Shown: in pieces, positions 1 to 52,701 of the stretch | How positions within the stretch are numbered: the first letter of the stretch is position 1 | Layout of the letters: each line of letters begins with the position of its first letter | DNA from: Malacoraja senta | Lineage: Eukaryota | Assembly (NCBI GenBank): GCA_038087875.1 | Contig: JAXLNO010002694.1 | Location: forward strand, 248,001 to 312,000 | Length of the DNA stretch: 64,000 nucleotides | Reading direction: 5' to 3' | Position numbers and translations under genes: made by a program | The notes under the pieces: model-generated | Databases searched by the model: none | Told to the model about the DNA's origin: nothing | The model's input: the letters and a program-made list of their open reading frames with translations, nothing else

Positions 1-580
1 TGTTATCCCACTTTCTCAACCACTTAACCAATTAACCTACAAACCCGCACGTCTTTGGTGTCTAAAAAACAAAGATAAGAGAATGGACAGGCAATGTTTC
101 GGATTGGGACCCTTCTTAGAATCATACTGCACAGAAACAGACCATTCGACCAAACTCGTCCATGCCATGACGACCAAGATGAGCCATCTAAGCTATTCCC
201 ATTTGCCCGCATTTGATCCATATCCCTCTCAACCTATCCTACCCTCGCATCTGTCCATATCTCTTTTAAATGCTGTTACTGATTCTGCCTCACCTACCTC
301 CGCAGTCTGAAGAAGGGTCTCGACCCAAAACGTCACCCGTTCCTTCTCTCCAGCGATGCTGCCTGTCCCGCTGAGTTACTCCAGCATTTTGCGTCCACAG
401 TTTAAACCGGCATCTGCAGTTTCTTCCTACATACTTCCTCTGGCAACTCATTCCGTGCACCCACCACCATCTGAGTGAAAATGTTGCCCCTCAGGTTCCT
501 ATTAAATCTTTCCCCTCTCACCTTATGACTTCTGGTTCCCGATTTCTACCTCCGCAGTCTGCCTCATCTACCTCCGCAGT

Positions 581-612
581 CTGAAGAAGGGTTTCGGCCC
601 GAAACGTTGCTT
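581..612 (+). ncRNA. Minimal hammerhead-ribozyme-like motif in a Penelope terminal-repeat fragment
   Basis: CTGAAGA-A-GGGT-TTCG-GCCC-GAAAC-GTT: intact core boxes, helix II, palindromic ACGT in place of helix III. Helix I is only ~2 bp. Confidence 0.5.
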
Positions 613-31696: not shown

Positions 31697-33240
31697 TATC
31701 CTCTGGACCTCGATTCTCCTACTCTGGGCAAGAGACTCTGTGCGTCTACCGGATGTATTCCTCTCATGATTTTATACCATATAAGATCACCCTTCATCCA
31801 CCTGCTCTCCAAGGAATTGAGTCCCAGCCTACTCAACCTCTACCTGATAGCCCAGACCCTCAAGTCCTGGCAACATCCTCGTAAATCTTCTCTGTACGCT
31901 AACCAGATCACTCTTCGAAACTGAAGATAATAAGCAAATAATATTCTGACGTCCTTTTAATTGATTTTTATTATAATTTCTTTTTATTACCCATTGTATA
32001 ATAGAAAATAGTATTTTGACATCCATTTAATATATTTGTATTAAAGATATTATACAATGTATGATAATTTTTACAGCAAAAACAGGTGATCTTAAAAAGA
32101 CAACAGGACACAGACCCTGGTGAGTTTAAAGGGAGAGCGGATAACAGACCCCAGCATTTTAAAGGATCAGTAGAACTGGGCTCCAGTGTGTGAGAGGGAG
32201 GGTGGGAGTCAGCTTCTGCCTCATGTGAACTACCAAGATTTCCAAATAATTGGATAGTGGACAATCGGTATTTTACTGCATTGTGGAACTGAGAAAAAGC
32301 ATTAATCACAAATGCTGGAGTTACTCAGCTGGTCAGGCAGCGTCTCTGGGGGAAAGGAATAGCTGACGCTTTGGGTTCCGACTATTCTCGAGACCGAGAG
32401 TCAGGAGGGAGGGAAACTTACAGATATGAAAAGTAAAAGTGATATCTCAGGTCAAAAGGCCTGGACAGTGATTGTGGAGAGGATGATTCCAGTAGTGGAA
32501 GATTCTAGGACCAGAGGGCACAGCCTCAGAATAAAAGGACATGCCATTAGAATGGAGATGAAGAGGAAATCTTGATGCTGGTGAATCTGTAGAATCCATT
32601 ACCACAGGTGGCTGTGGAGGCTAAGTCATTGGATATTTTTAATGCGTAGATTGATAGTTTCTTGATTAGTAAGGGTGTCAAAAGTTACAGGGAGAAGCAA
32701 GGAGAATGGGATTGAGAGGGGAAAATAGATCAGCTTTGAATGTATGGCAGAGCAGACTTGATGGACTCAATGGCCTAATTCTGGTCCAATGACTCATGAT
32801 CTTGTGAAAAGCTCAGGCCTGGCACAAAGCTTGCAGTCCACAGGGCAGCAGTGATCTCTGGTCTTCTATATATTTTGGGGGCTATCTATCTACAACATCC
32901 ATGGATGTTGCGTGACCTGCTGAGTGGTTCCCGTTTTTATTTCGGAGTGCTCTCGGTATGGAGTTTGCATGTTCACACTGGGACTGTGTGCGTTTTTTCA
33001 GGGTGCTCCGGTTTCTTCCCACACTCCAAAGACGTGCGGGCTTGTAGGTTAATTGGCTTCAGTCAAAATTATAAATTGCCCCTAGCGCGTAGGATAGTGC
33101 TAGTGTACGGGGTGATCGCTGGTCGGCGCGGACTCAGTGGGCTGAGGGGTCTGTTTCCACACTGTATCCCTAAAGTCTAACGAATCATCCATTCCAATGA
33201 GAGGGCACCAGTACACTCGAGTAGGGTCCATGATTGGGGA

Positions 33241-33348
33241 TAGACACAAAATGCTGGAGTAACTCAGCGGGACAGGCAGCATCTCTGGAGAGAAGGAATG
33301 GGTGACGTTTCGGATCGAGACCCTTATTCAGACTGGGCAGTCAGACTT
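33241..33348 (-). mobile_element. Penelope terminal-repeat fragment inserted in the last MHC exon
   Basis: 12-bp TSD CATGATTGGGGA (33229-33240, 33349-33360); sequence matches the hammerhead-containing repeat family. Confidence 0.85.
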
Positions 33349-33449
33349 CATGATTGGGGAGTCTGACTTGGGAAGCATTTTCTCTTTCTCGTTCCTGTCA
33401 ACTCCTCCTGCTGTTACATCCTTCTGCAAAGACTGACTGCTGGTGGAAC
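33328..33449 (-). CDS. MHC class I exon 7 (terminal cytoplasmic exon)
   Basis: Acceptor ...tctatcttag; phase-compatible (G)STSSQSLQKDVTAGGVDRNEKEKMLPKSDSPIMKSDCPV*; the last 6 aa and the stop derive from an insertion. Confidence 0.7.
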
Positions 33450-34167
33450 CTAAGATAGAGAGTAACAAGGTGAGTGGAAATTCCAGGCAAGATTTAGACA
33501 GCACAGTGGCGCAGTGGGTAGACCTGCTGCCGCACAGCGACAGAGACCCAGGTTCCATCCTGACCTCGGGTGCTGCATGTGTGGAGTTTGCACGTTCTCC
33601 CTGTGACCACGTGGGTTTCCTCCGGCTGTCCTGGTTTCCTCCCACATCCCGAAGGCGTGTGGGTTTGTAGGTTAATTGACCCTAGTGTCAGGGAGTGGGT
33701 GCAAATGTGGGGTAATGTAGAACTAGCGTGAACACATCCACGATGGTTGGCGTGGACCCGGTGGGCTGAAGAGCCCGTTTCCATGCTGTATCCCAAAACT
33801 AAACACCATCCTACGTCCTTCTCTCTCCCCACCGCCACATTCCCCACCCTCCCCTCAACCCTCCTCACACAAGGGGGGTGACTGCCTAGAACGAACTGCC
33901 AAGGTGGTTGAAGCAGATAGGAATGTGGCATTTTAAAGACTTTTGGATAGGTATATGGATACAATGGGAATGGAGGGATATGGATTATGGGCAGACAGAT
34001 AAGTGATGGTCATGGCATCATGTTCGGCCCAGACACTGTGGGCTGAAGGGCCCATTCATGTGCTGTACTGTTCTATGTCCGATGTTCCATTATTGTGATC
34101 TATGCTGGGAGCTGAATTTAGCACCAAGTCCTGCCCTAGTCCAACAAGTCCGTACAATGTTACTTAC

Positions 34168-34197
34168 CTGATGAGGAAGAGTCAGTCTCACTGGATC
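34168..34197 (-). CDS. MHC class I exon 6 (Ser-rich cytoplasmic exon, 30 nt)
   Basis: tttgtttag|GATCCAGTGAGACTGACTCTTCCTCATCAG|gtaagt = (G)SSETDSSSS, phase 1-1. Confidence 0.85.
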
Positions 34198-34569
34198 CTA
34201 AACAAATGAAAAGGCACAAGTCAGCTGCTGAGAAATGTCACTGCGGAAACACTGCCACAGGCTCCGCATCAAACTACTTCCACAAAAACAAGCACATCAT
34301 ATTCTGGGACAATTCTTCCTTGAGGTTAAACTGCAGCTGGAGATATTGGAGAGAGGGAGCACTGCACTGTAGCATAGGGAATGGAGGGAGTGCTGCACTG
34401 TTGGAATGAGGGAACTGATCGAGTGCTGCATTGTTGCACAGAGAGCCGAGGGAGCGCTGCATGGCTGCACAGAGAACTGAGTGAACCGAGGAGTCCCATA
34501 CAACTGCTGGACGAGTGCGTTCCACGTGTCTGTGCAGTGTGTGAGGTTGCAGCCCCTGTTCCAATATCT

Positions 34570-35030
34570 AAAGCGGCTGCTCCTTGCCTTCTGGCTGCAC
34601 TTCACACCCACCATCCTCATCTTTGGACACCCTATGCGTAGGTGAGAGGGTAGGGCCGAGGATGTCCTGGTTGGGTTGCTTCTAGGCCTGACCAAGCTGG
34701 CCATCCGCAAGTCACGGAGCCAGGCGGAAGAGGCCTTTGCCTGAGCCGGCTGCCTGCCCCTTTTCCGTGGATATGTCCGCGCCCAGCTGGTTTTAGAAAG
34801 GGACTAGGCGCTGTCCATGGGCGCCCTGGGGAATTTCCGGGACCGCTGGGCATCGCGGGGCGGGGGGATGAATGCATCCTTGACAAGGATTGTAATATAG
34901 TCGTTTAATTTTCAGTATATTTAAGAATATTTGTTTTACTTTGTGCTGTGGTGGTGGGTTTGTTGTTATCGTTTTGTATTGTACATATTATTCTTGTAAA
35001 TAATTGATTTAAATTATTTTTTGGTATAAA
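34570..35030 (+). mobile_element. Tx1-type LINE 3' fragment
   Basis: LLLGLTKLAIRKSR...AGCLPLFRGYVRA motif followed by an AT-rich 3' UTR. Confidence 0.65.
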
Positions 35031-35537
35031 AAAATGTTCTATTTGCTTGCTCTGTGCCTCTTTGATGGAGTATTGCTCATTTTCAGTGCGTTTTTGAGGC
35101 TCAGTATATTGCAATTAAAAGAATCTCAACAGACAGGCTGTGGCAGCCCAGTGGTGCAGCCGTTAGAGGCGCTATCTCACAGTGCCAGAGCCCCGGGTTC
35201 GATCCGGACCACGGGTGCAGAGTTTGCACGTTCTCCCTGTGACCGCGTGGGTTTGCTCTGTGTGCTCCGGTTTCCTCCCACTTCCCAAAGATGTGCAGAT
35301 CTGTAGGTTAATTGTCCCTCTGTAAATTGCCCCACCTAGTGTGTAGGGAATAGATGAGGAACGGGATAACATACAGCTAGTGTGAACGGATGATCGATGG
35401 TCAGCGTGGACTTGGTGGGTTGAGGGGCCTGTTTCCTTGGTGTATGTCTAAACTAAACCAAGTGCTTGAGGTTAACAAATGTGGGTGGCTTGTCCCTGAC
35501 TGTCGCATGCGAAACAGATCGTGCAATGCGGTCTTAC

Positions 35538-35669
35538 CCTTGCCAAAACAGCTGTAGTCTTTCACCACTCCTGAACCCTTCTTCCACAAGTTGAAAACAG
35601 CCCACAGTGTGCACAGAAACAGCAGGATAGCTGGGATCACCAGCCATATAAGAACACGGCCACCTTGAT
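35538..35669 (-). CDS. MHC class I exon 5 (transmembrane + proximal tail)
   Basis: ttgtttaattag|...|gtaaga, 132 nt, phase 1-1: DQGGRVLIWLVIPAILLFLCTLWAVFNLWKKGSGVVKDYSCFGK. Confidence 0.9.
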
Positions 35670-38250: not shown

Positions 38251-38526
38251 CCCAGACAACGTCCATTCCTTCGGGCCTGCTGCTGTGCCACACGCGGCAG
38301 ACATGCTCCCGTCTCTCTGCAGGCTCCATCAGCAGAGTTACCCTCATCTGATAGGTGCCATCGTGGTTGGGTAGAACGCCAGAGTTTTTGTTCGCAGGGA
38401 CAGGTTGCCCATCCCTGAACCAACTTACGTTGATGGTCTGCGGGAAAAAGCCAGTGGCCAGGCAATGGAGAGCGAGTTTCTGACCATCGGGAGACCTCCC
38501 GGAGTAGACCCTCACATCTGGAACAG
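38251..38526 (-). CDS. MHC class I exon 4 (alpha3, Ig C1 domain)
   Basis: 276 nt, ctctcag / gtaagt; AVPDVRVY...HCLATGFFP..INVSW...VLPNHDGTYQ...HVCRVWHSS; both Ig cysteines present. Confidence 0.97.
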
Positions 38527-47005: not shown

Positions 47006-47281
47006 CTTTGCGAGATAGCATGGAGTCTCCGTACTCGAGGTATTTCTTCAACCATTCCACGCAGATCGTCTCGGTGTAATGCTTCTTGTAGATGTTGTGG
47101 GCTGTGTCGCTGTTCCACTTGTCCCTCGTGCTCAAGGCCAAGGGTGAGGCGGTGACCCAGATGGACCGCTCGAAGTCAAAGCTGATCAGATCCTGGCCGT
47201 TGAAGGCATACTGGCGCACCCCGCTCACCGTCCCGTTGTCCGTGACGCTGCAGCCCGACGTGTACTGCAGGTAGTTCAGCT
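47006..47281 (-). CDS. MHC class I exon 3 (alpha2 domain)
   Basis: 276 nt, tccag / gtaggt; ELNYLQYTSGCSV...QYAFNGQDLISFD...STRDKW...YTETICVEWLKKYLEYG; both alpha2 cysteines present. Confidence 0.98.
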
Positions 47282-48498: not shown

Positions 48499-48762
48499 CC
48501 ATCTTGCTGCGGTTAGATCGTTGCATTACGATCTGGACATTGGCCATGTACAACTTGTGTCGATTGATCAATCTCTGGGTCTCCTTGTCCCAGTAGTCAC
48601 TTCCCAGGGCTCTCTCCATCCAAGGCTGCCGGGCAATGTCCTCCTCGGTTTTGCTGTCAAAGTAGGTTATCTGAACGCCATCCAAAACTCCGATGTGCAC
48701 AAACTCAGGAAGGTCCACACTCCCGACCATCGAGGTGTAGTAATATTGCAGTGAGTGTGTCT
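48499..48762 (-). CDS. MHC class I exon 2 (alpha1 domain)
   Basis: 264 nt, ttacag / gtatgt; (E)THSLQYYYTSM...PEFVHIGVLDGVQITYFDS...PWM...DYWDKET...QRSNRSKM; N86-equivalent sequon NRS. Confidence 0.98.
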
Positions 48763-50104: not shown

Positions 50105-50995
50105 TATTGAGTATTGAGGCAGCTTACAACCCAGCGTTATGAATATTGATTTCTCTAACTTCAAGTCACCCTTGCAACCCCTCTCCCTCTCTGTCCCTCC
50201 CCCACCCAAGTCGTTGTACTAGTATCAAAATCGTCTTGTGTAGGAAAGAACTGTAGGTGCTGGTTTACACCGAAGATAGACACAAAATGCTGGAGTGACT
50301 CAGTAGGACGGGCAGCATCTCTGGATAGAAGGATTGGGTGACGTTTCGGGTCGAGACCCTTCTTCGGACTTGTCAACAAGACAAGGTCGTCTTGTTGTGT
50401 CTCATTGCCTGTAACTCATTTTGGGGCCACATGAGTGCAACGGCGCCATGTAGACTGGGCAATCGTTTCACTGAACACCTTCGCTCAGTCCCCTTGGAGT
50501 TACCTGATCTCCCAGTTGCCAAACACTTTAATTCCCCTTCCCATTCCTACACTGAGCTTTCTGTCCTCGGTCTCCTCGATTGTCAGAGTGAGGCCAAATG
50601 CAAATTGGAGGTATAGCATCTCATATTTTGCTTGGTCAGCTTACAACCCAGTGGTATGATTATTGATTTCTCTAACTTCAAGTAACCCTTGCATCCCCTC
50701 TCTTTTTCCATCCCCCTCTCGCCCAAGTCATACCAGCATCAAAGTCCGCTTGTTGAGTCTCATTGTTGATACTTGTTTTCACCCAGCACACAGCTAACAA
50801 TGGTCTGTTTCTTTTATCATTGTTACTTTTTAGTATATCTTTAATTTATTTGTTCTATATCTCCCTATATCACCATCTATATCTCTCGTTTCCCTTTCCC
50901 CTGACTCTCAGTCTGGAAAAGGGTCTCCACCCGAAACATCACCCAGAGATGCTGCCAGTCCCGCTGAGTTACTCCAGCGTTTTGTGTCTAGGCTG
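50105..50995 (+). mobile_element. Penelope-like element 3' end: GIY-YIG domain C-terminus plus terminal repeat, in partial-tandem arrangement
   Basis: RLGNRFTEHLRSV...DLPVAKHFNSPSHS..LSVLGLL.CQSEA...LQPSGM.IDFSNFK* (~50440-50685); 3' piece duplicated at ~50118-50240; degenerate hammerhead core at ~50912. Confidence 0.85.
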
Positions 50996-52649: not shown

Positions 52650-52701
52650 CCGAACAGACCCAGGGAAGGCATAGACACAAGGTACCGAGTAGCAGCAACA
52701 T
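52650..52701 (-). CDS. MHC class I exon 1 (leader)
   Basis: MLLLLGTLCLCLPWVCS + G|gtaagt (52 nt, phase 1); splices in frame to E-THSLQY; promoter motifs lie directly upstream. Confidence 0.9.

Follow-up and report, generated by a model that had tools for sequence, protein, structure and literature searches.

A truncated Penelope fragment probably provides the C-terminal residues and stop codon of a likely UDA class I protein in skates

The window analysed here, a stretch of 64,000 nucleotides of Malacoraja senta DNA, carries on its reverse strand an MHC class I gene of seven exons (Table 1), with GT-AG boundaries in all six introns. Splicing by coordinates yields an intact coding sequence of 1152 nt (383 aa) with no internal stop, in which leader, alpha-1, alpha-2, Ig C1-type alpha-3, transmembrane segment and tail follow one another in a single open frame, as in a class I heavy chain, and which ends in KSDSPIMKSDCPV and the stop codon. 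The orthologue of Amblyraja is 89-92% identical per domain, that of Leucoraja 87-89% in alpha-2 and alpha-3, that of Rhinoraja 81-84% and that of Pristis 68-76% per domain. The nurse shark protein QGX07421, which we take to be UDA, is about 60% identical in alpha-1 and alpha-2; a search of one published supplement for this accession gave no match. Among the 75 matches of the alpha-2 exon in the assembly the gene's own locus alone is close, all others being at most 39% identical, and a single copy is also what distinguishes the elasmobranch UDA lineage: in the available text of PMC10751288, UDA is the single-copy gene of its MHC-Ib cluster. That text and the accessible part of PMC12562908 likewise place UDA beside another divergent class I gene, and the nurse shark 'nonclassical MHC class I antigen' (QGX07421) is the orthologue of the skate gene. 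The gene is a single-copy nonclassical MHC class I gene, likely UDA, and we use that name for it.

Table 1. Features of the class I gene and of its terminal exon in the window, in the order of transcription.
Feature	Position	Strand	Description
Exon 1	52650..52701	-	signal peptide MLLLLGTLCLCLPWVCS; tblastn with orthologue leaders; GT donor
Exon 2	48499..48762	-	alpha-1 domain; Pfam MHC_I, E 5e-15
Exon 3	47006..47281	-	alpha-2 domain; Pfam MHC_I match
Exon 4	38251..38526	-	alpha-3 (Ig C1) domain; Pfam C1-set, E 2e-16
Exon 5	35538..35669	-	transmembrane segment and start of tail; joint to exon 6 found in runs X1 and X3
Exon 6	34168..34197	-	30 nt, Ser-rich; joints seen on both sides
Exon 7 (terminal), coding part	33328..33449	-	ends in EKEKMLPKSDSPIMKSDCPV and stop; joint 34168>33449; orthologues
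Target 15-mer	33355..33369	-	KSDSP codons; resembled by the filler (13/15)
TSD, 5' copy	33349..33360	-	12 bp, exact direct repeat
Insert	33241..33348	-	108 bp: 15-nt filler and Penelope pLTR fragment, sense to the gene
5' filler	33334..33348	-	15 nt coding KSDCP; putative mosaic of target register and element upstream sequence
Val codon and minimal hammerhead motif	Val 33333-33331; motif 33331-33304	-	criteria from the available parts of PMC4209133 and PMC11167929
TSD, 3' copy	33229..33240	-	12 bp, exact; 120 nt from the other copy
Unique stretch	33181..33228	-	separated from the frame by the insert; would read DPTRVYWCPLIGMDDS; now 3' UTR
SINE	32947-33180	+	5'-truncated, tRNA-derived, antisense to the gene; presumably older than the Penelope insert
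AATAAA	32936..32941	-	just past the SINE; without the SINE might overlap the K-stop ending, given a 4-bp TSD

Several other class I sequences were seen. A leader exon with its upstream sequence, MESYNVPVSLLIAVLSLCSVSGDH, lies at 745-998 of the window (minus strand); it belongs to a second divergent class I gene, with the leader at 849-745 and a gene order as in the fused Rhinoraja and Rhincodon models, and this gene may be the CD1-like UFA. One distant alpha-2 match (L003, G000:C2938:617110-617373, 39% identical) stands within an open frame of 1174 aa, an unusual length for an exon-split gene, with one TAG inside the match. Unplaced contigs of G000 carry dozens of near-identical alpha-2 exons, 31-35% identical to that of the skate gene and mostly one per small contig, which represent either an expanded nonclassical family or haplotype duplicates. 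Intron 5 contains four to five diverged tandem units of 31-33 bp at 34345-34484.

The original prediction held that a coding terminal exon takes its stop from a Penelope fragment, a claim that would fall if exon 6 were spliced elsewhere. The joint 34168>33449 is present in contigs of three of the four runs (X1 at depth 1108, X13 and X3), from three related organisms rather than from Malacoraja senta RNA; the fourth run, X22 (raw RNA reads of organism I), has zero depth on exons 5-7 and covers only repeats. Among the skate protein tails that could be aligned, 15 of 16 end in (K/R)S(D/G)CP(V/A): two Leucoraja RefSeq isoforms and 13 transcript-type Logan proteins, which possibly come mostly from one species; the sixteenth is the Amblyraja model, which ends in MV. 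The main cluster numbers 32 members, of which 15 were listed. Because the splice is seen and orthologous proteins share the tail, exon 7 is coding and the fragment does supply its stop. A protein search with the tail alone matched P0001 and P0002 only. As to isoforms, P0001 (five contigs) is without the alpha-3 exon, and P0015 (the Leucoraja X2 model) is without the 30-nt exon 6.

The 108-bp insert in this exon is bounded by the 12-bp target site duplication (TSD) that had been proposed, the two copies being exact, and it supplies the last six residues, KSDCPV, together with the stop. The first two nucleotides of the 3' copy perhaps belong to the element, as 58 local alignments with family copies reach 33239 while 51 end at 33241. 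With the insert removed, frame 0 continues past the second TSD with MDPTRVYWCPLIGMDDS, after which it runs through 26 codons of the SINE before a stop; our recomputation (16 + 26 codons) reproduces the predicted 42 aa in place of 6. This pre-insertion state is only a computed one, since no empty allele was seen in the assembly (where a search with exon 7 gives one match), the listed proteins or the contigs examined.

The likeness of the insert's 5' end to the target just upstream also holds: the filler agrees with a 15-mer 21 nt upstream at 13 of 15 positions, a level reached by 3 of 20,000 shuffled 15-mers anywhere in the 161-nt flanks on both strands, and the homology-guided joining suggested from it is a fair reading of this match. 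Part of the likeness is the element's own upstream sequence, of which one family variant reads CTGACTCTCAGTCTGAA before the core. The filler keeps the register and the first four letters of the target, and at two diagnostic sites its letters are of the element type; the exact 18-mer of the insert occurs in one other genomic copy. Since target register and element-type letters are combined in it, we propose that the filler would be best explained by a template switch between similar sequences. Such an event would be ordinary for the Penelope family in this genome, where target-derived 5' fillers, direct or inverted, are found at other copies (window 581 and 50340, L048 and L069). The two copies in the window, at 540-610 (plus strand) and 50340-50400 (minus strand), have 5' ends with a copy of the target that is direct at 581 and inverted at 50340.

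The Penelope identity of the insert is borne out by a family copy, L116, whose 572-aa frame joins reverse transcriptase (RT) and C-terminal GIY-YIG in one ORF, the mark of EN+ Penelope-like elements (PLEs), and is followed about 110 nt behind by the same hammerhead motif; the insert, itself without an ORF, is 85% identical to L116 over 96 nt. The Pfam matches of this frame (RVT_1, E 1.7e-5; GIY-YIG, E 8.7e-4) both fall short of Pfam's cut-offs. In several family copies the motif also follows GIY-YIG-like frames, as befits a Penelope/Poseidon pLTR. Pfam gave no match in two degraded frames of this kind at 50329-50656, nor in L108. At 50430-50990 (plus strand) the window holds a degraded Penelope 3' part with a GIY-YIG-like C-terminus, then a pLTR and a broken hammerhead, and a further copy faces it head to head. 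EN+ PLEs may have a tail of 30-40 nt and occur as inverted or tandem partial copies; in this family 3' ends of both a short and a long type, as well as inverted 5' copies, were visible by eye, without a formal count. For comparisons within the family we sampled 60 consecutive-style copies from the start of contig C1. TSD-like repeats of at least 10 nt were found in 7 of 23 scorable copies, which include the near-duplicates L048 and L069, against 4 of 108 control pairs; 33 of the 60 had been set aside because the element continues upstream, and four more because no 3' end was found. Against the column majority of 53 of the sampled copies, the insert differs at 3 of 94 sites: hammerhead position G8, a position in stem II and one subfamily-variable site.

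The motif itself was recognized by inspection in the pLTR of the insert and of the 60 sampled copies. The stop TGA at 33330-33328 is U4-G5-A6 of the hammerhead and the last base of the Val codon is C3. At 33326 U replaces G8, the base found in 53 of 53 scored copies, which were picked with a pattern that includes this G, and a C to U change at 33314 turns a G-C pair of stem II into G-U. The core 20-mer has 41,177 exact genomic matches in its intact form and 287 in the G8U form. An Rfam scan of 32400-35200 returned no hammerhead and no other credible family, and the lowest-energy monomer folds of the window's copy and of an intact copy were not hammerheads (z about -0.7), negative results that are to be expected because the motif is a minimal monomer. 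Single minimal PLE hammerheads did not cleave according to the available text of PMC4209133; in the accessible part of PMC11167929, G8C abolishes cleavage in an Anolis element, whose ribozyme also needs protein. The window's copy, whose core is not intact, is likely dead, and since lone minimal motifs do not cleave and G8 is lost, the mRNA is predicted to be safe from cutting.

Behind the unique stretch lies the SINE, one of a family with a CTAAA-type tail of which 37 copies were examined. The copy breaks off at about 32947, short of the B-box region of longer copies, and the tRNA-derived head with A and B boxes is absent from it; its part at 32957-33035 may correspond to the V domain of V-SINEs. 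It differs from its family majority at 36 of 234 sites, a majority that mixes subfamilies and overstates its age, and its best copy is 83% identical, compared with 3 of 94 sites and a best copy of 98% for the Penelope body; given this divergence the SINE is likely the older of the two. The AATAAA next to it is doubtful as a working poly(A) signal, because 32744-32927 is covered by a contig of organism A whose depth, 1130, is like that of the splice junction, although contigs cannot show ends. A cluster of AATAAA/ATTAAA at 31961-31988 (minus strand), about 1.3 kb behind the stop, is a candidate for the end of the 3' UTR.

The insert is common to other skates. Its 5' junction is crossed by spliced contigs of organisms B (48 insert letters) and C (68), and a contig of organism B spans the 3' junction, with 28 insert letters, together with the unique stretch and the SINE. 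DNA-type contigs of organisms E, F and G cover 33320-33491 gap-free at 92-96% identity with 29 insert letters; these and the 3'-junction piece of B are just below the 31-letter rule for bridging. In all, the insert is present in five of the five coded organisms with listed pieces that reach the 5' junction (B, C, E, F and G), a count outside which stand D, whose contig stops 3 nt short, A, whose piece is unlisted, and I, which has no cover. The contig of D (run X7) encodes the same residues as Amblyraja; it ends at 33352, with a depth of 3.4 and no loose end. The Amblyraja RefSeq model ends in SPIMV, a third type of end. GTCTGA occurs twice in the insert, once in the filler and once in the core, and removal of either 2 or 15 nt after the Met codon would give Val-stop; an indel of the assembly in the RefSeq model is also possible.

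Among orthologues outside the skates, the tail ends in KMLV in Pristis, Hypanus, Hemitrygon and Mobula hypostoma, and in LV in Pristiophorus and Heterodontus; tails of carpet, cat, basking and hound sharks run longer, which weakens the view of KMLV as certainly ancestral. In the fused model of Rhinoraja, KMLPKSVSPVM is followed by divergent sequence, the residues after SPVM having no credible match in the window. MKPDPSLTDP of Hemiscyllium lines up with skate PKSDSPIM/DP across the insertion site (p about 0.007-0.009); the test is weak, as one of eight sharks reached p<0.01 on both scores and one more on one score, with a 10-residue window chosen post hoc.

With regard to function, a C-terminal Val or Ala is a reported ER-export signal of human MHC-I in the accessible text of PMC3741148, and terminal Val is kept in all three end types of skates and rays (KMLV, SPIMV and DCPV). 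Other ends are found in five full-length orthologues of Orectolobiformes and Carcharhiniformes (P0031, P0032, P0033, P0037 and P0039), in Mobula birostris (VLVS) and in one Logan protein (CPA). Since the end is again Val, tolerance of the insert is plausible and selection for it possible; a Val-stop is also what the element's GTCTGA simply encodes, which speaks against selection. The tail upstream is intact, including an ExxxML stretch that resembles a dileucine-type sorting signal. At 35538-35570 (minus strand) the window reads DYSCF where Leucoraja has GCCSF, Amblyraja GCCGF and Rhinoraja GSCCF; DYSCF holds a YxxF-type motif, and this species-specific gain could outweigh the insert for trafficking.

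We consider it quite probable that a 5'-truncated Penelope fragment with a 12-bp TSD ends the likely UDA protein, and that it was fixed before several skate species split. The element's GIY-YIG endonuclease would have cut with a 12-nt stagger, and reverse transcription would have started, with at most 2 nt of microhomology, at the short 3' end that many copies of the family share. Copying may have stopped shortly before the hammerhead, at a point where element and target are alike, and a template switch would there have left the 15-nt mosaic filler with the frame kept, so that the hammerhead-core word GUC-UGA would come to read Val-stop. The insertion was likely tolerated because the change is small: exon 7 still holds the stop, nothing is altered in the tail upstream, the end is Val and no cutting is predicted for a lone minimal ribozyme, which would need a dimer or protein and has lost G8. 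The SINE would have arrived earlier and would now be 3' UTR, and the MV ending of Amblyraja is likely a later small deletion, of 2 nt if it uses the filler's GTC-TGA or of 15 nt if it uses that of the core. The original prediction that the tail was altered twice stands as regards the greater age of the SINE, but the SINE would have altered the protein only on condition that reading already continued past KML when it landed. We lean towards such an open frame, in which a tail of about 17 residues (ending GMDDSK, which needs a 4-bp SINE TSD) would have grown to 42 and then been cut to 6; a small share of the probability falls to orders other than this one and the next.

An alternative order, with both elements landing behind an ancestral KMLV stop that was lost later, so that read-through met the Penelope TGA 13 codons on, is possible though in our judgement rather unlikely; the 42-aa form would then never have existed, because with the LV stop intact both elements would have entered UTR. 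It is favoured by the six rays and sharks that all stop at LV and by parsimony, an LV stop requiring two changes instead of three on an assumed species tree. Rhinoraja, a more distant skate, is already open past KML, so that the open frame may predate the insert, and the Hemiscyllium alignment, weak as it is, points the same way. An original direct join ATG/GTC TGA, giving the MV ending, with KSDCP as a later local tandem duplication of the KSDSP codons, we hold to be improbable. The exact register of the filler with its target, the Amblyraja ending and the Rhinoraja model, which appears to leave the exon right after Met as at a GT donor, would agree with it; but the filler is found in Leucoraja, the window, B, C, E, F and G, of which the last three form a separate group by exon states, and one loss in Amblyraja is simpler. 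The element-type letters at the two diagnostic sites, the 18-mer shared with another copy and the target-derived fillers elsewhere also count against a duplication.

Selection for the insert itself, in the sense that a frame open past KML had extended for 42 codons into the SINE, the insert brought back a short Val tail for ER export and the loss of G8 protected the mRNA, appears unlikely. In its favour are the terminal Val of KMLV-ending rays, Pristiophorus, Heterodontus, Amblyraja and the insert form, the single skate variant being Ala, the other residue allowed in human MHC-I in the available text of PMC3741148, as well as the position of both clear departures from the family majority within the 28-nt hammerhead and the rarity of the G8U 20-mer. 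Yet Val-stop is just GTCTGA translated, several shark orthologues do without terminal Val, G8U was read among skates in the window's copy only, and with two changes in 94 nt the chance that one strikes the roughly 11 core positions is, by our own estimate, about 0.2. A bolder variant, to which we give little credence, would have the ribozyme core co-opted as a protein terminus, with GUC-UGA giving Val export signal and stop twice in different frames (KSDCPV and the Amblyraja MV); either G8U would then have been selected, or skates that keep G8 would have, 24 nt past the stop, a switch that cleaves itself as the Clec2 ribozyme does. Least probable by far is the young polymorphic insertion, altering trafficking between individuals, that had been envisaged at the outset. 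In its favour are the perfect TSD and the 95-98% identity of the insert to its best genomic copies, but the insert is shared with Leucoraja and with species that are 3.5-8% divergent in the terminal exon, the assembly has one copy of the exon, and no empty allele was met; judged from these sequences, the insert is likely old and fixed, consistent with the Penelope insertion before the split of several skate species preferred above.

Retroelements in terminal exons that alter the mature transcript are known from a survey of last-exon transposable element (TE) insertions (PMC2911107), in the available text of which such insertions usually touch the UTR; unlike the cases given there, a Penelope-like element here gives coding residues and stop, in a cartilaginous fish, and is shared between species. 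In the accessible parts of PMC4209133, PMC11167929 and PMC6765202, Penelope/Poseidon PLEs have, as here, a single frame for RT and GIY-YIG with the motif behind it, minimal hammerheads with CUGANGA core, bulged A, short stem II and palindromic ACGU stem III, inverted partial copies, and two favoured 3' ends that differ by about 40 nt (the 'tail'). In contrast to these, the core of the skate copy is read as host codons and has lost G8. The skate insert has a 12-bp TSD and at most 2 nt of microhomology at its 3' end, and its site is not rich in A and T; the Anolis enzyme described in the same sources, by contrast, preferred ATT and needed no homology in vitro. A further parallel is the mammalian Clec2 hammerhead, whose cleavage site lies, as here, between stop and polyadenylation signal of an immune-receptor mRNA; in the available text of PMC6765202 that ribozyme is split and active in vitro, while the skate motif is a lone minimal one whose core is broken, and its cleavage site is reached or crossed by spliced contigs of B and C. 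The skate gene also differs from UDA as described, its tail ending in element-derived residues; the portions of PMC10751288 and PMC12562908 available contain no discussion of the tail.

No report of a Penelope-written protein end in skates was found in the literature searched, and an earlier mention in the primary UDA/UEA papers is possible. We regard this as a new, well-supported case of a known phenomenon, that of TE-derived exon ends, in which a Penelope-like element, a class seldom documented in that role, writes the C-terminus of a host immune protein. Should the ending be without effect, the case would be of modest value, since the insertion, neutral or tolerated, would then be one of more than 41,000 copies. 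Its presence across skates makes the insert a presence/absence marker for skate phylogeny, and the three natural endings KMLV, SPIMV and DCPV offer a ready test of the human MHC-I Val export rule in an ancient nonclassical lineage.
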